This document shows positions 19,758-29,374 of a DNA stretch of 64,000 bases, piece after piece. This DNA comes from Candidatus Poribacteria bacterium (lineage in GTDB: Bacteria; Poribacteria; WGA-4E; WGA-3G): assembly GCA_963663765.2 (NCBI GenBank), contig CAXXUA010000013.1:352001-416000 (forward strand). The letters are read 5' to 3'. Within the stretch, counting starts at the first letter, position 1. Each line of letters starts with the position of its first letter. A program made the translations under genes and the position numbers. The notes under the pieces were generated by a model, which saw nothing but the letters and a program-made list of their open reading frames with translations, searched no databases and was not told where the DNA came from.

Positions 19758-21035
19758 TTACTCTGGAAACTGTTCGCGTAGGGTCCACAGTCCTTGTCCT
19801 GGTTCACTAATATAGAAAACACCATCATCGTTATACCCATCATCAAGTGTTTCTGGATTGTATTTTGTAAGTACTTCATCTAACTGTGTCCATTCATAAC
19901 CAACCGATTCTATATCTTCTTTGGTTAGATGTTCTGTTGCATAGACAACATTGAAACGTCCCTCAGTACTTCCATGAATTAAGTGTGCAGCAGCAGATAG
20001 ATTTTCTCGGAGTTCAGCATTTTCTCTAACGGCTTTGAGAGTCGCTGATGTGCCGTTGTAGCCATATTTTCTGATGAGTCTATCGATTTCAGGGTCTTCA
20101 CCAAATTCCTGTAAACCAGGGGCAATAATAATCAATTCACTATCATCCTTCATTGCCATTCGTGTGCGGTAGATAGCCTTATTACCAAGCCAAGTGCTTT
20201 TAAACTCTCTTGGATCCAAATAGACAACAACTTTTGACAAAGGTTCGTCTAAGAATGTCATATTGACGTTTCTACTTAATTCTGCTGCTGCTTCAAATGT
20301 CTGTGCATCATCACCGATATATAGTCCACGCATCACACGGTTGTGATTTGCGTCTACATCCATTACACTCATCAGATATATTATTCCCAGTTGTTTCAGA
20401 AAATGTGTGTGTGCATAGTTTAACACTCGCCGGACAGATGTATCTGTTCGTCCCATCAACCGTTCCATCCCATCAACAGCCCCGAGGAAATGTGTTTTGT
20501 TTATCATTTCAACGCCACCAGTTCCTACCAGAATGTTCTTAAACCCATTTGCAATTCCGACAACTTCATGGGGTATTACTTGTCCGACAGAAATAATCAA
20601 GTCGTAGTTTCGATCAACAAGACGTTTGTTGATAGCTACAGGAATACTATAATCAAGTTTTCCACCAGAAACTTCTTGGATAAATTTGGATGGAACTTCA
20701 CCAAAGTGGTACAAGCCTATTCTCCATTGATGGTTATGGTATTTTGCTTTTGGTAAAGAACCGTACATCTCAGCAATTTGTGCTTCAGTCATCGGAGAAT
20801 GTGTGCCGATTGCAGGTAGAATATCAAAGGTGTAACCGTTGGCAGCTTCCCAAAGTTTATAGAGAATACGCGTAAGTTCACCAGCATTTGAATGTAGTCT
20901 GGTAATATCAGGTGGAACGACCAAAACCTTTTTTGGAATCCCTCCCAACTTGAGTAGTGCTTCGTGAAGTAGAGCGCGTTTCTGCTCGGTTGTGATGGTG
21001 GTATCTTTTCCACCGTGTGAAATGTATGTTGCCAT
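19758..21035 (-). CDS. lactate racemase (LarA/DUF2088) domain protein
   Basis: VLVVPPDITR, AIGTHSPMT, PHEVVGIANG.KN, NKAIYRTR. Confidence 0.78.
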   Translation of the reverse strand: MATYISHGGKDTTITTEQKRALLHEALLKLGGIPKKVLVVPPDITRLHSNAGELTRILYKLWEAANGYTFDILPAIGTHSPMTEAQIAEMYGSLPKAKYHNHQWRIGLYHFGEVPSKFIQEVSGGKLDYSIPVAINKRLVDRNYDLIISVGQVIPHEVVGIANGFKNILVGTGGVEMINKTHFLGAVDGMERLMGRTDTSVRRVLNYAHTHFLKQLGIIYLMSVMDVDANHNRVMRGLYIGDDAQTFEAAAELSRNVNMTFLDEPLSKVVVYLDPREFKSTWLGNKAIYRTRMAMKDDSELIIIAPGLQEFGEDPEIDRLIRKYGYNGTSATLKAVRENAELRENLSAAAHLIHGSTEGRFNVVYATEHLTKEDIESVGYEWTQLDEVLTKYNPETLDDGYNDDGVFYISEPGQGLWTLREQFPE

Positions 21036-21672: not shown

Positions 21673-23322
21673 TTAATACAGCACATGCACTCTGTTATTG
21701 CCGCGCAATGTCTTATCTGACATCACAATTGGCATCTCAATGATAGCGATTAGTGAACCATCATCACTTATGGTAAGTGTATCGTAAGGGAGTTGACCCT
21801 CAGTTCGGTAAGTATAGAGATATTTCTGCAATCCACTACCTTTTGCTGTGAGATCAAATACGGAGATCCCATGTAGACTCTCGTTTGGGTTCTGACTTCT
21901 CTTAGATACTGCCAATGCTGCATATCGTCCTTTACTATCAATTCGTAATCCTTGTGGCATATTTTCAAGTTTCCACTGCCACACTTTTTCACCGGTCCAA
22001 TTATAAGCAAACATCGTCATTCCGTTTGGGTGGAGTGCTGATGGACGTTGCGCGCCCTTTTGCAAGTGGTATGGGATATAGGTGTCTCCTGTAACAAAGA
22101 GAGCGTAAGTGTCGGTTGTGCCAATTGTGCCAGTTGTAGCGATAATTGGTACACCGCTTACTTCAAGGGGAGTTGCTAAATTCTGTTTCCATATAGGTTC
22201 TGATTGGTTCGTATCAAAAATGAATGCGCGCCCATCATCCGTTGTAACGTTGACAAACTTACCGTTAGGTGACATACTCACACCACGCCAAAAAGTGACC
22301 CCTTTATAGTACGGTGTCAGTGGTTTAATCTCTGATTGCCATTTTTCTGAACCAGTATCTATATCAAGAATAGTCAAAGTGCCGTTTCCATTCCCGCTTT
22401 CATCTATGACACACGCGAGTGTTTTTCCATCAGCACTAACATCAAACCATCGGATAATCTTTTGTATGGCTTTATCTTGAGGATACTTCCATACTACATC
22501 CCCATTTGCATCAAATCGGTATAGCATTGACCGTCTTTGAGGTATCCCATTTTTTGACCATGAATGCACACCCGCTACCAATAAATCACCGTTTGGCATA
22601 GTTTGCATACAGGACGTTCCAGGATAACTCACCCATGCGTAAACGCTCTCAGGATTACTTGGTGTAGAAGTTTCAATATCATCTGCAGTTCGGTATTTCC
22701 AACGAAGATTTGGACGATCAGTCGTCAAGTCATAACAGTAGATACATCCATCTGCTGCTTGTTCACCGATGTAAAGCATGGAATTGTTAGAACTAAATGC
22801 AATGTGCTTTACATAACCTTCTGAAATGCGCGTCTTCCATACATTATTTCCAGAAATAGGATCTACAATCGCTAAATGTCCTCTGTCAGTAGCGATTGCG
22901 AGTTTTTGACTCTCCGTTCCGTGTCCGAATACAATCGCTGTCGGTTTTGCAGGTTGACGTAAGTTCTCCATAAGCGACAATAGTCCATCCAAATCAACCG
23001 TTCGTATTAGGTAAGGTGACGGTTTTAACGGTGAGCTTACTTCTGTAATGACTTTATTGACAAGAATCTTATACTGGACATTAGGTTGCCATATGAAAGT
23101 TAAAAGAACACGTTTCTCATCAATTTTTTCAAAAGGGACTGTATCATAAGATGTACCTTGTTTTCTTTCGTTGACCTTAAAAACCGTATTAGGTTCAATT
23201 TTCGTTTCAGTTTCCAGAACGACCCCAGTCCGAACCCAGGTAACATTCAGTTCTGCATTAACAACTCCAATAGGTATATAAATTAACAGCAATAGTAATA
23301 TAATAATTCGCAAATTCTTCAT
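21673..23322 (-). CDS. secreted PQQ/WD40-like beta-propeller protein (third gene of cobalamin-riboswitch operon)
   Basis: signal peptide; repeated W-K/R, S.DG motifs (VSADGKTLA, MSPNGKFV, ISDDGSLIA). Confidence 0.75.
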   Translation of the reverse strand: MKNLRIIILLLLLIYIPIGVVNAELNVTWVRTGVVLETETKIEPNTVFKVNERKQGTSYDTVPFEKIDEKRVLLTFIWQPNVQYKILVNKVITEVSSPLKPSPYLIRTVDLDGLLSLMENLRQPAKPTAIVFGHGTESQKLAIATDRGHLAIVDPISGNNVWKTRISEGYVKHIAFSSNNSMLYIGEQAADGCIYCYDLTTDRPNLRWKYRTADDIETSTPSNPESVYAWVSYPGTSCMQTMPNGDLLVAGVHSWSKNGIPQRRSMLYRFDANGDVVWKYPQDKAIQKIIRWFDVSADGKTLACVIDESGNGNGTLTILDIDTGSEKWQSEIKPLTPYYKGVTFWRGVSMSPNGKFVNVTTDDGRAFIFDTNQSEPIWKQNLATPLEVSGVPIIATTGTIGTTDTYALFVTGDTYIPYHLQKGAQRPSALHPNGMTMFAYNWTGEKVWQWKLENMPQGLRIDSKGRYAALAVSKRSQNPNESLHGISVFDLTAKGSGLQKYLYTYRTEGQLPYDTLTISDDGSLIAIIEMPIVMSDKTLRGNNRVHVLY

Positions 23323-23382
23323 TTTATATCTCCAGTAAAGTTAAGTGTGATATGTTTCTTTTTTTGTTTTGATGTCAATCAA

Positions 23383-25302
23383 CTACTCAGTCACCCTCCA
23401 CAATCCACGACCTAATTTTGAACCGAGCAGCACACCGATGAAGGTATACATAAAACCTTCCAGAATTACTCTTAATAAGATGTACCAGTTTGCATAAAAA
23501 AGTCGGTAAAACAGGATCGAAAGTTGAAAATCTACATACACTGCTATTGCATCACAAACTGCAAGACCGATCGCCCATGCGAACAATCCCCGCTTGCGTA
23601 CCAGCCCAAAGCCTGTCTCCAATAGCAAAATACTTGTACCCGTGTAAATAATAGTCATTGGAGAAAAAAGACCCAGCGTAACAGCACCGAGTAGCAGACG
23701 AACTGCAGAGACAAGTAGAATAACCCCACCTTTTGTTGTATCTTGGTTGTTTCCAAACTCCAGTGATTTCTCTTTATCTGGTGCACCATAGATATAAAAC
23801 AATAGTGCAGTTAGTATCGCATAATAGAGAGTTTCATTGACCAAACCTGTTAGAATGACAGAGAATGGACCGAGGATCGCAGTAATGATATTCAAAAAGA
23901 GTGTTGATGGTACAACGACAGTAACGAATATCGTTGTACCAAATATTGCTATAACAATAAGCTGCTTAGTTGAGAAACGTATAAAAAAGCGTTTGTGAAA
24001 CCCAAGTAAAACAAATAGTCCAATACAACTTGAGAGAATTGCAAGTCCGCTTACAAATAGTGCGTGTCTGTTTGGAACAACGATGTGAAGTGGTCTTTTT
24101 TCGTTAATGATTGTAGTATCAGTACCCCATAGCTTAACAGTAATGTCTCGTTCGTATTCGCCAGCAATAGCAGAATGGGGTTGGAAGTAAATTGGTAAAG
24201 AAATAGAAGTATGTTCACCTCCAGCTAAACTCGCGAAACTAATACTCTGATTCGTTCCTGCATTTACTGCATCCGGTGGTGCAAGAAAGGATACTGCTTC
24301 ACCAGAATTCAAATCACGATTTATGGAGGACACTACCACGTGTATTGTCTCATCACCATGATTCATCAATCTAACAGTTTGAAATGTTATAGGCTCAAAA
24401 GGATCCGTTTGTTCTTTTCCAAGCAAGCTGAACAGTGGACGTGGATGATATATTGCATCTTTCCGTTGCCGTTGGTCTGCTTTACCATCAGAATCTGTAG
24501 GCATATCAATAGAAGTAACGGATAGTTGCTCAACAATGTCGGAGATAGGTACTATCCTTACCTGTAAGTATGTTTCCTGTTCCCATGTCTCACCATCTGA
24601 TGTTGTAAATTGAATTCTACCTGTTAAATCATAAGTATCTTTATGATTTGGTGAACCATTTATAACATCAGGTGGAGTTAGAACAATTTCATGAAACCAG
24701 ACTTCTGAAGCAACACTAAACGAGCCAGTGATTGAAAAACATTTCTGCTCACCTTTAGTTTTTATCACCCAATCCTCTGGAATCCCAGAAACTTCAAATG
24801 ACGTAGGTAGACATAACTCCACAGTATAGTTAGTCGGTGCATTCCCATTGGTAACAATTATCGTTGCAGTCATCTCGCTATCAATCGGAATAAGACTTTT
24901 CTGTTGATTTTGTATTGACGTTGGATGTGATAATCCACTTGATGTACCATAGGGAATTGCTATATCTAAAGTTCCTTGCGAAGAAGTCTTTGGTGCTTGA
25001 ACTGTCAGTATACTTATCTGTTCCGAAGACAAGGTCGCTTCAAACGTATATATTTCACCTGCTTGCCATTCAAAAAAAAGTGTTTCTATCTCTCTTGGTT
25101 TACTGGGAAATCTGATTTGTGCAACCATTGTACCCTCGGAATTGAAGGCAGATACCTGTTGAATCGGTGTCTTTTCTGTAAAATGGATTTTTGCACCGAG
25201 GTTGATAAAGGATATCTGCCATGATAATTCTCTCTCAGGTGTTTTCTGTGTACAAGCGAAGAAAAGTATCAATAGAAAAGGTAAGATTCCCCACTTGTGC
25301 AT
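23383..25302 (-). CDS. large extracytoplasmic domain fused to a multi-TM, ECF S-component-like domain
   Basis: N-terminal FFAC lipobox-like motif; C-terminal 220 aa with 6-7 TM helices beginning FSTKQLIVIAIF. Confidence 0.65.
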   Translation of the reverse strand: MHKWGILPFLLILFFACTQKTPERELSWQISFINLGAKIHFTEKTPIQQVSAFNSEGTMVAQIRFPSKPREIETLFFEWQAGEIYTFEATLSSEQISILTVQAPKTSSQGTLDIAIPYGTSSGLSHPTSIQNQQKSLIPIDSEMTATIIVTNGNAPTNYTVELCLPTSFEVSGIPEDWVIKTKGEQKCFSITGSFSVASEVWFHEIVLTPPDVINGSPNHKDTYDLTGRIQFTTSDGETWEQETYLQVRIVPISDIVEQLSVTSIDMPTDSDGKADQRQRKDAIYHPRPLFSLLGKEQTDPFEPITFQTVRLMNHGDETIHVVVSSINRDLNSGEAVSFLAPPDAVNAGTNQSISFASLAGGEHTSISLPIYFQPHSAIAGEYERDITVKLWGTDTTIINEKRPLHIVVPNRHALFVSGLAILSSCIGLFVLLGFHKRFFIRFSTKQLIVIAIFGTTIFVTVVVPSTLFLNIITAILGPFSVILTGLVNETLYYAILTALLFYIYGAPDKEKSLEFGNNQDTTKGGVILLVSAVRLLLGAVTLGLFSPMTIIYTGTSILLLETGFGLVRKRGLFAWAIGLAVCDAIAVYVDFQLSILFYRLFYANWYILLRVILEGFMYTFIGVLLGSKLGRGLWRVTE

Positions 25303-25314
25303 AAAGAATACCAG

Positions 25315-26613
25315 TTAGAAATAGTTTGCCACAAGGACTAAATCAAGGATGTTCACCTCTCCATCGGTGTTTACATCACCTGTAATTCCAGGACCTCTTT
25401 GTCCGAAAGCTTGACCGACAATTACTAAGTCTTTTATGTTCACAAACCCATCATCGTTAACATCTTCATTTCTTGGAATAATCTGAACAATTGTAACATT
25501 ATCAGTGCCAAAACCGAGTTCATAGGTTTTCAGGAGTGTCTCATCTGAATCCATCACAATCATTGTTGACAATCCGCTTTGTGTCCAATCAGGTTTTGTT
25601 ATGTAGAGATTACCATCATGTCCGAAAGCCATTCCAGACCCACCAGCAAACGCACTGAGTGTGTTGTTTCGATCGCGTATCCATTCTTTGGTATGGACAT
25701 CGTAGATTAGCAATCCAGGATGCTGCCACCCTCCTTGAATAAACAGTTGTTTCTCCGAATTGATTGCTATTGCACCCGGTGTCGTCCTTGTGTTAACCTC
25801 AGTGATGATTTCATCAGTAGTCGTGTCAATTAGCACGAGTCTGCCCGTTATCAAATTGTAATCACCTGTGGTCTTTACGATAACAGTAGATTCACCGTCA
25901 TTCACTATTCCAGTAGCGTTTATTGGCATTGGAATAGATTTTAACACAGTGTCAGTCTGTGTATCAATTACTGTCACGCTGCTCTGATGGTAAATGGATT
26001 TACCTGCAAGCGCATCCCACTCCCAAGCGGGATTGGTCACATACGCTTTTCCATTCAAGAGTGTGATCCCCGTAGTTTTGTTCATGGATGGGTCGGTGAT
26101 AACTTTGGTCACTTTGCGTGTATCAATATTAACAACCAATACTTGATGAGCATTGTCACAGGTAACGTACATCTTAGTAGAATTAATAAGTGCCATGTTC
26201 TGTGGATAAGCTCCAGGAGGGATTGCAATTCTACCAACATACTTTCTATTTTCAAGATTAACAATTTCAATGGTATCGCTTTGGTCTCCAGATAACCAAT
26301 CAAAACGTGTTATATATGCAAGATGTCCATGAACCAGAATGTCAGTAGGAACATCCCCTATAGTGACAATCTCATCGTCAACAGCGCGTTGTAAATTCGG
26401 TTCATCTAAATCAATGATTGAGATCGTTGAAGTGATATGCCAATCTTCTCTATCAAGTGAATTCAAAACGACAGCAAGATTTTGGACATCTGATTGAGCA
26501 AGCGTGGAACCTACGAGGGATGTGAAAAGTAGAGCACTGATGAGTATCAGTGAATGTAGTTTATGTGTTGTGTAGAAACCGAAATGTCGCCTAAAGAAAA
26601 AACCTGTTTGCAT
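25315..26613 (-). CDS. YncE/BtuG-like beta-propeller protein with C-terminal dockerin-like EF-hand pair
   Basis: GGAGG RBS before ATG 26613; YVT repeats (KMYVT, KAYVTN, VTVIDT.TD.V); DVNDDGFVNIKDL / DVNTDGEVNILDL. Confidence 0.75.
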   Translation of the reverse strand: MQTGFFFRRHFGFYTTHKLHSLILISALLFTSLVGSTLAQSDVQNLAVVLNSLDREDWHITSTISIIDLDEPNLQRAVDDEIVTIGDVPTDILVHGHLAYITRFDWLSGDQSDTIEIVNLENRKYVGRIAIPPGAYPQNMALINSTKMYVTCDNAHQVLVVNIDTRKVTKVITDPSMNKTTGITLLNGKAYVTNPAWEWDALAGKSIYHQSSVTVIDTQTDTVLKSIPMPINATGIVNDGESTVIVKTTGDYNLITGRLVLIDTTTDEIITEVNTRTTPGAIAINSEKQLFIQGGWQHPGLLIYDVHTKEWIRDRNNTLSAFAGGSGMAFGHDGNLYITKPDWTQSGLSTMIVMDSDETLLKTYELGFGTDNVTIVQIIPRNEDVNDDGFVNIKDLVIVGQAFGQRGPGITGDVNTDGEVNILDLVLVANYF

Positions 26614-26627
26614 TAATACCTCCGTAA

Positions 26628-26667
26628 TGAAACAAGAAACCCCTGCTTTCATAGGAAAGACAGGGGA
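26628..26667 (-). terminator. candidate intrinsic terminator in riboswitch leader
   Basis: minus strand cccctg-tctttcctatgaaag-cagggg followed by tttcttgttt, just upstream of the RBS. Confidence 0.5.
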
Positions 26668-26807
26668 CAAGGGACACTTCGTATAACTATGATCCTGATA
26701 TTTAGGTTGATTGAGAAATATTTTATCAGTATTTCTATTCTATTTTGTCAGGATTACGTTGTGCTTTATTCCACCGCTTTCCCGCGAAAGCAGATTTGTG
26801 AAACACG

Positions 26808-27014
26808 ATCCAGGCAGGTCTCCTGACTTCCGATTAATTGGGTAGTTTACAATCAAAACTGGTACTACCTATCCCGCTGTGCCTTCCCATCAACCATTGA
26901 CAGTGGACTTTTACAGCGGTTATTCCTATTTAGGAATAAATCGTTTACAGTGGCGGGGCCGTGGCGGATTTTCACCGCGCTTCCCTATTCTCCGAACTTC
27001 GGCACCTGAACCGT
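26808..27014 (-). ncRNA. cobalamin (AdoCbl) riboswitch
   Basis: minus strand: aggtgcc...aatagggaagcgcggtgaaaatccgccacggccccgccactgtaa...gtccactg...tgggaagg...aagtcaggagacctgcc (B12-box). Confidence 0.95.
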
Positions 27015-27041
27015 TCATTATATTTAATTATTGATGTGTAA

Positions 27042-27070
27042 ATTATATCAGATGACAGTATATTATGCAA
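27042..27070 (-). promoter_or_regulatory. sigma70 promoter driving riboswitch transcript
   Basis: minus strand TTGCAT-17 bp-TATAAT with TGn extension, about 30 bp before the aptamer. Confidence 0.65.
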
Positions 27071-27272
27071 ATTTTTCTGAAATTAGAGGTGTGTAAAGTT
27101 TTTGTAGAAACCCTGATATTATATTGAAATCTAAAAAATATGTTTACATTTATTTGAATTTTGCTATATTTTAGTGTAGTTTGGACAGTTTATTACAAAT
27201 ATAAGTTGATGAGAAATTGGTTCACCGCTTATGTTACCAAATCAATACACTACGAACAAAACGCAAACCCTC

Positions 27273-27425
27273 TTTGCTCCAGCGGAGCATTATGTTTATA
27301 GCCAAATTGTCAACTGACAACTCCGCTCCAGCGGAGCGGTATGTGAGTTACAACACATAGCAATCCGCTGGAGTACAAGAATGGGGGATACCATTTTATA
27401 TAAACATAGTTCTCCGCTGGCGTGC
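27273..27425. repeat. clustered short palindromic repeats (gctccagcggagc family)
   Basis: gctccagcggagc x2, tccgctgg x2, with tgtttatag / tataaaca arms; same architecture as 46170-46325. Confidence 0.55.
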
Positions 27426-27589: not shown

Positions 27590-29374
27590 ATGTACTTCAA
27601 TTTTACGCCTATAAGCGACCTGAAAGATGAAAATCTCGTCCCGCTTGTCCAAGCTCGTGACGAAACAGCATTCAAGGAATTGATGGATCGTTACAATCCA
27701 AAAATCTGGTTTGTAGTTAACGAAAATTCAAGACAACGCCAAGATGCTGAAGAGATCCTTATGGACATCTGGATGGCAGTTTGGGATAACATTATCGGTT
27801 TACGAAAACCAGAAAGTTTTGGCGGGTGGTTACGCAGAATCGCACATAACGCCTGCAAAAGATACTACGCATCGGGCAAAAATCAGCATAGTGAAATACT
27901 ATTAGATTATGATGAACTCACTCTACAGATTGATAGAGAAGCGGAACAACGTTTTCAAAACGCAAGACTACGATCTGATGCAAGAGAAGCAGTACATCAA
28001 CTTCCACAACGCATAGTGTCTGTCGCGAGATTATACTATCTTGAGCAGTGGAACGTCAATGAGATCGCTACCGAACTCAACTTAGCTGTCGGTACTGTAA
28101 AGTCAAAACTCAGTGAAGTACGGAAACTGCTAAGAAAAGAATTTGAGGTTGAACCTATAAGGAGAGAAACTATGTCAGCTAACATGCAAAACAATGAAAA
28201 CGAACAGAAAAAAATAAAAATTATAGGTGTTGGCGGTGCTGGATGTAACACTCTTAAACGCCTAATTGATGAAAGTTGGAGAAACACTGAATTCTATGTT
28301 GTTGATACTGATAAGGAAACCCTTAGTTCTTGCAATGAGGTGACACAAGTACAAATCGGTATAAACAATCTTAAAGGGCAAAGTACCAACGGAAACCTGG
28401 AACTTGGGAAAAGGGCAGCTGCGGAAAGTATGGAAGAACTACGTGCTATCGTCTCAGACGCAAGTCTGGTTTTTGTAATTGCAGGTATGGGGGGAGGAAC
28501 TGGTACTGCGGTTGCACCAGTTATTACTTCACTGGCACGCCAACAAAAAGCATTAACGATCTGTATGGCAACACGTCCATTTGAAGTAGAAGGTAAACTA
28601 CGCTCAGAACAGGCAGAAGAAGGGATAAGGGAACTGCACAGTAACGAGCATCCCCAAGCTGATGCAGTTATCATTGTCCCAAACCAGCGAATACTCGATT
28701 TAGTTGACGTGGATTTACCTATACCCCAAGCTTTCTTGGAAAGTGATGAAATCTTGGTACAAGGTGTAAGTCTTATCGCAGAAATGGTTACATATAATGG
28801 TGAAATAAATGTAGACTTAGAAGATATTCAATCAATGCTACAAAACAAAGGAACTGTTCTAATGAGTTTCGGTAAAGCTAAAGGCGAAAATAGAGCAGGA
28901 ATCGCTGCACGGAACGCAATATCCTCACCCTTATTCGAGGAGAGTAAAGTCAATGAGGAATCTGCAGTCATTGTTGGTATCGCATCTCCACCAGATTTTA
29001 CCATGCATGATTTAGATGCAGTCATGAAGGAAATAGTTAAAGAAACCCCACATGATCAGTGTATGTTTGGATTAGTATATAAAAAAGAACTGGAGGCAAC
29101 TGGTGAAGTGATAGTAACAATCATTGCAACAATGCCTGATTCTTCTAAACAGCAAGTACTTACAATTGACACCAGTAAGGACACAGAAGCTCCCACCGAT
29201 GATAAGACCGTTTCCGCATCAAAAACACAAGAATTTACACATCAACCCAAATACAGTAATTTTGATCTTTCATATCTTATAAATCAAGTACCCGTAAATG
29301 TGCAAACAACGATTGAACAAGGTATTACTGCCACAGTAAAAAACCAACTTCAGTCAGAGAAAATACACAGTTGA
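27590..29374 (+). CDS. ECF (sigma-70 group 4) sigma factor fused to an FtsZ/tubulin-like GTPase domain
   Basis: sigma region 2 (DAEEILMDIW, FGGWLRRIAHN) and region 4 (EIATELNLAVGTVKSKL); FtsZ motifs IKIIGVGGAGCN, AGMGGGTGT, PFEVEG..R, PNQRI, INVDLED; AGGA RBS. Confidence 0.9.
   Translation: MYFNFTPISDLKDENLVPLVQARDETAFKELMDRYNPKIWFVVNENSRQRQDAEEILMDIWMAVWDNIIGLRKPESFGGWLRRIAHNACKRYYASGKNQHSEILLDYDELTLQIDREAEQRFQNARLRSDAREAVHQLPQRIVSVARLYYLEQWNVNEIATELNLAVGTVKSKLSEVRKLLRKEFEVEPIRRETMSANMQNNENEQKKIKIIGVGGAGCNTLKRLIDESWRNTEFYVVDTDKETLSSCNEVTQVQIGINNLKGQSTNGNLELGKRAAAESMEELRAIVSDASLVFVIAGMGGGTGTAVAPVITSLARQQKALTICMATRPFEVEGKLRSEQAEEGIRELHSNEHPQADAVIIVPNQRILDLVDVDLPIPQAFLESDEILVQGVSLIAEMVTYNGEINVDLEDIQSMLQNKGTVLMSFGKAKGENRAGIAARNAISSPLFEESKVNEESAVIVGIASPPDFTMHDLDAVMKEIVKETPHDQCMFGLVYKKELEATGEVIVTIIATMPDSSKQQVLTIDTSKDTEAPTDDKTVSASKTQEFTHQPKYSNFDLSYLINQVPVNVQTTIEQGITATVKNQLQSEKIHS

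Follow-up and report, generated by a model that had tools for sequence, protein, structure and literature searches.

By what route does a Poribacteria cell take vitamin B12 (cobalamin) across its inner membrane? This question is raised by a three-gene operon preceded by a cobalamin riboswitch, which together occupy positions 21673-27071 on the minus strand of the 64,000-nucleotide stretch of DNA analyzed here (the window). Among the symbionts of sponges, Poribacteria are dominant and uncultivated. Import of B12 has been proposed for them, possibly via a TonB system and for the degradation of 1,2-propanediol, and no inner-membrane importer is named in the relevant passages of the two papers (PMC5087111; PMC8546597). 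According to a passage of a third paper, the inner-membrane B12 importer is unknown for many bacteria (PMC6072759). A first-pass annotation of the window, made from its letters alone, had proposed that the operon encodes a noncanonical module for the capture and import of B12. In this study, that proposal found support in the riboswitch, in the modeled energy-coupling factor (ECF) S-component fold of the gene 2 product and in the ECF genes that neighbor its homologs; the corresponding ATPase and T component are encoded elsewhere in the source genome. We put the probability that the operon is a B12-repressed system for cobamide capture and ECF-type import at about 0.72, and it is thus a concrete candidate for a B12 importer of Poribacteria.

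The operon and its cobalamin riboswitch in Poribacteria

The three genes are co-directional and are spaced by 12 and then 60 nt, as had been stated in the first-pass annotation. The features of the operon and its leader are as follows.

27042-27071, minus strand: sigma-70-like promoter match TTTGCA-18 nt-(TG)TATAAT, a consensus match about 18 nt upstream of the aptamer
26796-27024, minus strand: cobalamin riboswitch aptamer RF00174 (Rfam, 93.5 bits, E = 5.9e-22, full model 1-189)
26774-26793, minus strand: 8-bp hairpin CUGCUUUC-GCGG-GAAAGCGG directly 3' of the aptamer, read from the sequence and seen in the fold
26619-26623, minus strand: GGAGG ribosome-binding site of gene 1, spaced 5 nt from the ATG at 26613, read from the sequence
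25315-26613, minus strand: gene 1 (432 amino acids), propeller and dockerin; the full open reading frame (ORF) is 25315-26670
23383-25302, minus strand: gene 2 (639 amino acids), ORF
24067-25302, minus strand: N-terminal part of gene 2, with a lipobox-like leader (residues 1-17) and an extracytoplasmic part (residues 18-412)
23383-24066, minus strand: C-terminal part of gene 2, with an anchor helix (residues 415-433) and a six-helix domain (residues ~444-639, window 23386-23973)
21673-23322, minus strand: gene 3 (549 amino acids), secreted; an extension of ~100 residues at the N-terminus precedes a PQQ_2/BamB-like beta-propeller

The identity of the leader as a cobalamin riboswitch is beyond doubt. 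Its Rfam score of 93.5 bits compares with a gathering score of 31.5 bits for RF00174, and it is the sole Rfam match of the whole window. A scan of the entire source genome (G000; 6.35 Mb, 15 contigs, 97.8% complete) returned exactly one copy of RF00174, which is that of the operon. The promoter and the terminator-like hairpin that had been described together with the riboswitch are both present. The promoter match alone is no better than chance, since 25 promoter-type consensus sites were found in the region against 19.6 +/- 4.6 in shuffled sequences. The hairpin is followed by no U-tract and gave no entry in the terminator scan, so that it is noncanonical and terminator-like in a loose sense only; it can instead pair with GAAAGCAG near 26641-26650. 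The ATG at 26613 is likely to be the true start of gene 1, because it is preceded by GGAGG and because the resulting 432 amino acids match the length of most homologs.

Surveys of homologous loci, which had been suggested as a check for riboswitches and ECF genes, covered the best 80 of 310 genome loci and the best 80 of 304 metagenome loci, the metagenome profile representing distant members. In 76 of the 80 Poribacteria loci, an nhmmer search with the riboswitch of the window located a homolog that shares the strand of gene 2 and lies 1.5-2.3 kb upstream of it. Two of the four misses (L047 and L055) are contigs that end shortly upstream, and the other two (L079 and L082) are divergent loci. 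The gene order 1-2-3 was found in 69 of the 80; in the others, spurious ORFs or a contig end interrupted it. In an even sample of 121 Poribacteria genomes, gene 2 is present in 113, which comprise every genome of the order to which the source genome belongs, and in none of the eight genomes of the other four families. RF00174 was detected in 112 of the 113 genomes with gene 2, as exactly one copy in 108 of them. In one genus (G003, G007, G022 and G038) gene 2 follows the riboswitch immediately, at a distance of 170-420 nt and without an intervening gene 1; these four genomes also hold a second RF00174 copy elsewhere. Further exceptions in placement, identified by eye, are a riboswitch 8.4 kb upstream (G085), one 24 kb away on the opposite strand in a genome that contains withheld bases (G092) and two on another contig (G043 and G080).

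The B12 economy of the organism is in keeping with a need for import. The source genome encodes a MetH equivalog (2014 bits against a cutoff of 1497), three B12-binding domains, an MtgC/MtbC-type corrinoid protein that scores under the equivalog cutoffs, and a B12-dependent radical S-adenosylmethionine (SAM) enzyme. No CobS, CbiC or Peripla_BP_2 was found in it, and a tblastn search at 1e-6 found no CobN, ChlI, CbiZ or BtuF-like gene; given a completeness of 97.8%, these genes for B12 synthesis and BtuF-type uptake are likely to be absent. Sixteen matches to TonB-dependent receptors mark the organism as a diderm with TonB transport. Since B12 is used and neither a synthesis pathway nor BtuFCD was found, the operon would be the route of B12 across the inner membrane. 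Across the phylum sample, all eight genomes without gene 2 have Peripla_BP_2, as do 55 of the 113 with it. One of the former (G004) carries RF00174 450 nt before a BtuF-type (Peripla_BP_2) gene, an arrangement in which the same sensor would regulate a BtuF-type system of the classical kind in a genome without gene 2.

Membrane domain of gene 2 and its candidate ECF partners

Gene 2 had been described as a lipoprotein-like extracytoplasmic domain fused to a multi-transmembrane domain, and this architecture was recovered. The leader contains a lipobox-like LFFAC with Cys17, a position that is Cys in most of the 26 aligned family sequences, and one anchor helix, six further hydrophobic helices and a basic C-terminus follow. 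A search with gene 2 against PDB sequences gave no match. The two halves of the protein were modeled separately, from alignments of 55 rows each. For residues 405-639, the model has a mean predicted local distance difference test (pLDDT) score of 90.3 and a predicted template modeling (pTM) score of 0.86.

This model of the membrane half was compared exhaustively with 48,161 representative PDB chains. The 14 best structural matches are all ECF S-components, with Z scores of 8.7-12.1, and involve model residues 40-235. They include RibU 5kbw (Z 12.1), the S chains of the ECF complexes 4huq (Z 11.8) and 4hzu (Z 11.5), RibU 3p5n (Z 11.3), the S-component 5edl (Z 10.5), 4m5c (entry title 'transition metal transporter', which we take to be NikM; Z 10.1), FolT (Z 9.7), CbiM (Z 9.6), BioY (Z 9.6), ThiT (Z 9.4), BtuM with hydroxycobalamin (8ovv; Z 9.2) and PanT (Z 8.7). 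The next unrelated chain has a Z score of 6.7, and CbrT one of 6.3. Helical bundles may reach such Z scores with this aligner by chance; here, however, one family fills the top ranks and is followed by a gap of two Z units. A Foldseek search of the membrane domain against the PDB returned nothing at E <= 0.001, and its best hit was again the S-component 5edl (6.5e-3). As modeled, the last ~195 residues of gene 2 are an ECF S-component fold, the class of BtuM and CbrT with which a comparison had been proposed.

The extracytoplasmic part (residues 18-412, 395 residues) was modeled with a pLDDT of 90.6 as three beta-sandwich domains at approximately model residues 5-87, 91-234 and 241-393. It resembles pilin, cohesin and macroglobulin domains as well as Ig-like domains from GH2 enzymes (Z 9-12); such folds are generic and carry no information on the ligand. 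The possibility that the second of these domains might serve as a cohesin for the dockerin of gene 1 was considered: it matches cohesins with Z scores of 9.3-10.6, but pilin and macroglobulin domains match it equally well, and canonical cohesin matches (12, for about 60 dockerins) are available elsewhere in the genome.

A HMMER scan of 1.84 billion cluster representatives (clusters at 50% identity) yielded 355 gene 2 clusters at E <= 0.001, 68 of them at E <= 1e-30. The members are mostly 540-640 amino acids long and align best over residues 230-639. Named members come from Desulfatibacillum aliphaticivorans (Desulfobacterota), Planctomycetota, Candidatus Tectomicrobia, an uncultured Anaeromusa (Negativicutes) and Candidatus Oleimmundimicrobium. 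Those members that were seen are annotated as 'hypothetical protein' or generically only, and genome-based predictions of B12 uptake consequently miss this family.

Outside Poribacteria, the neighbors of gene 2 homologs in the metagenome loci were called as crude ORFs and labeled by phmmer. The counts refer to the 61 loci of other than Poribacteria type in which the gene 2 homolog was itself labeled; a further 12 loci, mostly of high guanine-cytosine content, in which the ORF caller left it unlabeled are outside this set. A fused double ATP-binding cassette (ABC) ATPase lies within two ORFs of the gene 2 homolog on the same strand in 39 of the 61 loci, and a CbiQ-family T component within three ORFs, likewise on the same strand, in 36; one or both are present in 51. 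The expected ECF components thus do accompany the family. A gene 3 homolog was found in 28 of the 61 loci and a TonB-dependent receptor in 18. Two loci were checked with Pfam. One (L161) reads adenosylcobalamin riboswitch, TonB-dependent receptor, ABC ATPase, gene 2 homolog, double ABC_tran ATPase, CbiQ, gene 3 homolog (PQQ_2) and ABC exporter; the other (L148) reads riboswitch, receptor, a protein without assignment, gene 3, gene 2, double ATPase and T component. An S-AA'-T arrangement of this kind is the signature of a group-I ECF operon. The 374-residue protein between the receptor and the propeller in L148 shows no detectable relation to gene 1 (hhalign probability 1.6%) and matched no PDB chain.

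Other neighbors are CobN (eight loci), ChlI/ChlD-like proteins (six), BtuF-like proteins (six) and CbiZ (three). CbiZ is a cobinamide amidohydrolase of corrinoid salvage. In many bacteria cbiZ colocalizes with cobalamin transporters, as stated in a passage of PMC8620254. Full-length CobN-type chelatase and ChlI/ChlD-like ATPase genes stand beside ECF genes in L085-L087, L090, L105, L128, L130 and L138, loci that are mostly riboswitch-free. In L144, L152, L161, L162 and their relatives, gene 2 and gene 3 homologs occur together with a TonB-dependent receptor, ECF genes and an ABC exporter; the L144 contig is titled as a human gut metagenome assembly. The L161 protein (552 amino acids) is similar in length to the representative P0327 (551 amino acids), whose cluster contains uncultured Anaeromusa proteins.

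Rfam was run at the gathering threshold on 66 metagenome loci, comprising two of Poribacteria type (L104 and L106, both positive) and 64 others. The scan did not extend to L091-L094, L121, L132, L136, L139 and L150, nine contigs that measure 1.3-3.5 kb and include little of the upstream region, or to five Poribacteria-type metagenome contigs (L095-L097, L099 and L100). A cobalamin-class riboswitch lies on the operon strand in nine of the 64 unrelated loci. Seven are upstream, namely RF00174 at L089, L118, L122, L148 and L151 and RF01482 at L161 and L162, and two are just downstream (L144 and L152). The pairs L161/L162 and L144/L152 look like duplicates, which leaves seven distinct cases, and RF00174 or RF01482 is found in at least five different operon arrangements. 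With one to six riboswitches per genome of 4-7 Mb in the phylum sample, and if this rate is applied, a chance match in a 15-kb locus should be rare. Many of the scanned metagenome contigs are too short to reach the start of the operon. The link to B12 control outside Poribacteria is recurrent but far from universal.

In Poribacteria themselves, the candidate ECF partners are encoded in trans. The source genome has one CbiQ-family T gene (C5:661391-662248). A relative of the fused ATPase of operon type is likewise encoded once at full length (C11:86111-87613) and matches the L089 protein with a tblastn E value of 1e-107. This ATPase contains two ABC_tran domains and exceeds the equivalog cutoffs of both NCBIfam ECF_ATPase_1 (416 against 315) and ECF_ATPase_2 (397 against 330). 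Among the S-component families searched, which were ECF_trnsprt, BioY and CbiM only, none was found in this genome, so that within this search gene 2 is the only S-component-like protein found for the module. CbiQ is present in all 113 genomes with gene 2, as a single copy except in G029, which has two; it is missing from the five genomes of the same class without gene 2, and two or three copies were counted in each of three more distant genomes that lack gene 2. The fused ATPase was found in 41 of 41 genomes of the order. In the 35 genomes in which the positions were compared, the ATPase and T genes are adjacent on the same strand in 26, 7-11 kb apart in three and on different contigs in six, including the source genome. 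As the two genes are mostly adjacent to each other and apart from the operon, an AA'-T module encoded on its own is the usual state, which corresponds to group-II ECF systems.

The genomes tie this module to B12 in a second, independent way: a radical-SAM gene immediately precedes the ATPase in 23 of 30 loci (L170-L199), namely in all those of three families and in none of the seven of a fourth. This gene encodes B12-binding, Radical_SAM and DUF4070 domains, and its best NCBIfam matches are far under the cutoff. In most Poribacteria the radical-SAM gene and fused ATPase are followed by the T gene; in the source genome the pair spans C11:86111-89620 (L163:6112-9621).

The separation of these genes from the operon raises the possibility that gene 2 acts as a solitary protein in the manner of BtuM, with no ECF ATPase or T component, and that the distant ATPase-T pair serves something else. 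No ATPase, T or TonB-dependent receptor gene lies within 7 kb of the operon in any of the 80 Poribacteria loci, and BtuM, which shares the fold, is described in a passage of PMC6072759 for organisms without an ECF module. However, homologs in other phyla are for the most part flanked by the ATPase, the T component or both, the T gene follows gene 2 through the phylum sample with the same-class genomes that lack one lacking the other, and the search for ECF_trnsprt, BioY and CbiM gave no other S-component that the module could serve. A solitary mode of action is therefore considered improbable.

The cargo itself might also differ from complete cobamides: it could be a metal, cobalt or else nickel, or a corrinoid that is incomplete, for example cobinamide. 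Transporters of cobalt, CbiMNQO among them, are likewise under the control of B12 riboswitches, and the T component belongs to the CbiQ family. When the extra helix at its N-terminus is included, the gene 2 membrane domain can be aligned across seven helices with 4m5c and CbiM, at the Z scores of 10.1 and 9.6 given above. Language-model look-alikes of this domain are weak (0.75-0.76), and one cluster (0.75) contains 12% of members with PF09819 ABC_cobalt. The chelatase-type genes CobN, ChlI and ChlD and CbiZ beside the homologs point in the same direction. Against this, neither cobalt nor cobinamide could be converted to B12 by any route found in the source genome, which lacks detectable CobS, CbiC, CobN, ChlI and CbiZ. 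In CbiM and NikM, a free N-terminus binds the metal, whereas the corresponding end of gene 2 is extended by the 395-residue domain. In addition, TonB-dependent receptors and a probable relative of BtuG would suit a large ligand. We regard a metal or an incomplete corrinoid as an unlikely cargo, on much the same footing as the solitary mode of action.

The secreted propellers and the proposed route

Both propellers that the first-pass annotation had recognized on either side of gene 2 were confirmed. Gene 3, the second of them, begins with a hydrophobic leader and contains PQQ_2 repeats (47.8 bits against a cutoff of 27.6). An assignment as BamB was rejected, as TIGR03300 scored 33.9 bits against an equivalog cutoff of 285 and only the generic PQQ_2 passes. 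Homologs of gene 3 adjoin homologs of gene 2, on either side, in many unrelated loci from several phyla; gene 3, and not gene 1, is thus the partner conserved across phyla. A weak language-model look-alike of gene 3 (0.83) has an Ig-like and propeller architecture. A complex prediction for gene 2 (residues 230-639) and gene 3 (residues 105-549), run with no controls, gave a score of 0.00 against a mark of 0.32 and speaks neither for nor against binding.

Gene 1 had been called a YncE-like propeller with a dockerin-like tail; both parts hold, and the propeller can now be described as a probable, though distant, sequence relative of BtuG. The leader is of the Sec type, with a hydrophobic segment at residues 21-39 and no cysteine. 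It is followed by a YncE/BtuG-like beta-propeller (residues ~44-375) with weak YncE/DUF5074 signals, that to Pfam DUF5074 being 20.8 bits and under the cutoff of 27.2. The C-terminal residues 383-432 (window 25318-25467) match Dockerin_1 with 33.4 bits against a cutoff of 22.9. This type I dockerin contains two calcium-binding repeats, read from the translation as DVNDDGFVNIKD and DVNTDGEVNILD, and can be aligned with the cellulosomal dockerin 2y3n_B. Dockerins aside, a single-sequence search of the PDB returned only BtuG2, BtuG3 and the related 3dsm (E = 5e-4 to 1e-3). A 16-sequence profile of gene 1 matched the BtuG1 complexes with cyanocobalamin and cobinamide (8PTD and 8PTF) at E = 6e-9, BtuG1 of the BtuB1G1 complex (8BLW_B) at 1.3e-8, and BtuG2 and BtuG3 at ~1e-4. 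The identities of these entries follow the data-availability statement of PMC10404256 and a preprint (10.1101/2024.02.16.580637). By sequence, gene 1 is probably a distant relative of the BtuG family, and it may, as a hypothesis, bind B12. Gene 1 is confined to Poribacteria-type loci among the genome and metagenome loci surveyed.

The source genome has approximately 60 Pfam matches to dockerins and 12 to cohesins, with several ORFs containing both, which suggests that gene 1 is tethered to a general envelope scaffold. A cohesin-dockerin system of this size belongs here to a noncellulolytic symbiont. These same matches, the resemblance of the ectodomain to pilins, cohesins and macroglobulin domains (Z 10-12) and the generic nature of propellers as scaffolds could be taken to indicate a B12-regulated envelope or adhesion module (Ig-like domains, propellers and dockerin) or a sensor rather than a transporter, which we consider very improbable in view of the clean and specific match to the S-component fold, the ECF ATPase and T genes that flank the homologs, and a B12-requiring organism with no other recognizable importer.

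For the cobamide importer, the following sequence of events is proposed. The leader RNA would bind cobalamin and thereby lower the expression of genes 1-3, so that they would be expressed when B12 is scarce. Gene 1 may act as a cobamide scavenger that is held in the envelope via the cohesin-dockerin system. After the outer membrane has been crossed, gene 3 and the stalk of gene 2 would hand the corrinoid to the S-pocket in the periplasm. The ectodomain that forms this stalk would be attached at each of its ends, through a lipid or signal anchor at the N-terminus and through the extra helix. Gene 2 would be the substrate-specific S-component of an ECF ABC importer, with the six-helix membrane domain holding the substrate, and would act together with the sole CbiQ-family T component and the sole fused EcfA-A' ATPase of the genome. 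ECF transporters operate by toppling, and the S-component, T component and fused ATPase would import the corrinoid by this mechanism.

A more far-reaching and tentative version of this model would make the system a binding-protein-assisted ECF importer, in which a stalked S-component and a periplasmic propeller (gene 3) are fed by a TonB-dependent receptor or, in Poribacteria, by a dockerin-tethered BtuG-like scavenger, and which serves as the main inner-membrane route for B12 there. The family is also present in no fewer than five further phyla, with carriers in gut communities among them. We hold this version to be possible, with the odds somewhat against it. To our knowledge, ECF transporters are defined as needing no extracytoplasmic binding protein.

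Several observations weigh against a B12 importer of the proposed kind. In searches against Pfam and NCBIfam at E <= 0.1, gene 2 matched no S-component family and no other family apart from a hit to fn3_6 under its threshold. The ATPase, T and S genes of the source genome lie on three contigs, so that their partnership is argued from copy number and from co-occurrence among relatives. Because related genomes are not independent, the co-occurrence of the T component with gene 2 amounts to one or two evolutionary events. The two divergent Poribacteria-type loci without an nhmmer hit, L079 and L082, are also Rfam-negative. None of the 16 TonB-dependent receptor matches in the source genome can be under its single riboswitch.

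The relationship of gene 1 to BtuG is similarly qualified. The YVTN propeller of a Methanosarcina surface-layer protein (1l0q) scores nearly equal to BtuG1 with the gene 1 profile (4e-8), and the BtuG signal is thus in part one of the wider propeller superfamily. In the stretch that can be aligned, none of five B12-contact residues of BtuG2 is identical in gene 1: N107, S131, R135 (R133 by chain count), I148 and W149 correspond to D110, Y136, Q138, D153 and N154, an approximate mapping from a weak alignment. Furthermore, gene 1 has neither a lipid anchor nor an adjacent BtuB.

Outside Poribacteria, 55 of the 64 scanned loci are free of riboswitches, including long ones with the same gene order (among them L085-L087, L090, L105, L128, L133 and L137), and the CobN, ChlI and ChlD neighbors would also fit a metal or another tetrapyrrole as the substrate in some lineages. 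CobN-like chelatases occur with TonB systems in heme-uptake loci. That the gene 2/gene 3 family as a whole imports another tetrapyrrole such as heme, with only the Poribacteria branch under B12 control, is nevertheless highly doubtful, given CbiZ within the operon at three loci and the several operon arrangements that carry RF00174 or RF01482.

Known transporters and neighboring genes

Among known systems, ECF-CbrT of Lactobacillus delbrueckii (PDB 6FNP) is similar in consisting of an S-component, a T component and two ATPase domains, in having B12 as its cargo in a cell without BtuFCD and in the fold of its S-component. CbrT is a small S-component of ~190 amino acids. It differs in having no ectodomain and no propeller partners; its structure gives a weak alignment with gene 2 (Z 6.3), and the two are not similar in sequence. 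CbrT is encoded with its module in a monoderm, whereas gene 2 lies apart from its presumed module, follows a riboswitch and belongs to a diderm that has TonB-dependent receptors.

BtuM of Thiobacillus denitrificans (PDB 8OVV) has the same fold as the gene 2 model (Z 9.2, root-mean-square deviation 3.8 over 153 residues). It is characterized in a passage of PMC6072759 as a predicted B12 uptake protein that acts without an ECF module and in which a cysteine ligates cobalt. Gene 2, in contrast, co-occurs with T and ATPase genes, carries an ectodomain and has no conserved cysteine in its membrane domain, where C426 and C583 are the only two and neither is conserved in the family alignment.

In the BtuG/BtuB systems of Bacteroides, a surface lipoprotein propeller caps a TonB-dependent transporter. 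Gene 1 is probably related to BtuG1, BtuG2 and BtuG3 and is likewise part of an operon with a B12 riboswitch, and homologous operons in other phyla begin with a TonB-dependent receptor. The differences are the Sec leader and C-terminal dockerin of gene 1 in place of a lipid anchor, the missing BtuB gene in the operon and the lack of identity at the mapped BtuG2 contacts. Lipoprotein-capped transporters are regarded as exclusive to Bacteroidetes in a passage of PMC10404256.

BtuFCD of Escherichia coli, a type II ABC importer, is also an inner-membrane B12 importer that is B12-controlled and takes its substrate from the periplasm. However, its membrane fold and mechanism are unrelated, and the periplasmic partner here would be a beta-propeller instead of a class III binding protein. 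CbiMNQO and NikMNQO share a CbiQ-family T component and a seven-helix S subunit with one helix before the six-helix core (Z 9.6-10.1). They differ from the present system in that the source genome has no Pfam match to CbiM and no CbiN, and in that gene 2 has a large ectodomain at its N-terminus.

A typical S-component is a protein of ~20 kDa with no extracytoplasmic domain and no binding-protein partner. Gene 2 departs from this definition in its 639 residues, its 395-residue ectodomain and its conserved secreted propeller neighbor. If the proposed function is true, CbrT and BtuM would be joined by a third type of B12 transporter with an ECF fold, the first to have an ectodomain and a conserved secreted partner. 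It would also challenge the rule that ECF importers work without binding proteins, and would extend BtuG-like scavengers beyond Bacteroidota. No description of the gene 2 family was found in a literature search that was made without most subscription journals and supplements, so that a printed account is possible.

The surroundings of the operon yielded some further observations. Beyond the 3' end of gene 3 and a gap of 637 nt lies a LarA-like gene with a Lar_N domain (19758-21035, minus strand), followed by a gene for a 260-residue protein without a Pfam family (18668-19450, minus strand); both genes trail gene 3 in locus L003 as well. Further along the minus strand (13807-14571, 15379-16164 and 16426-18126), two paralogous Laminin_G_3 proteins and a 566-residue WD40-repeat protein are encoded, which we take to be examples of the eukaryote-like repeat proteins known from Poribacteria. 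On the other side, the divergent neighbor (27590-29374, plus strand) is a single ORF of 594 amino acids with an unusual fusion of sigma-70 and FtsZ domains: sigma-70 regions 2 and 4 (residues 31-183) are followed by a Tubulin/FtsZ GTPase domain and an FtsZ C-terminal domain (residues 208-514). Between this gene and the riboswitch promoter, two identical copies of the near-palindrome CTCCGCTGGAGC are located at 27276-27287 and 27325-27336. The expected number of such a pair is 0.07, and two copies occurred in 0 of 100 shuffled sequences; they may be a regulator site or a repeat element.

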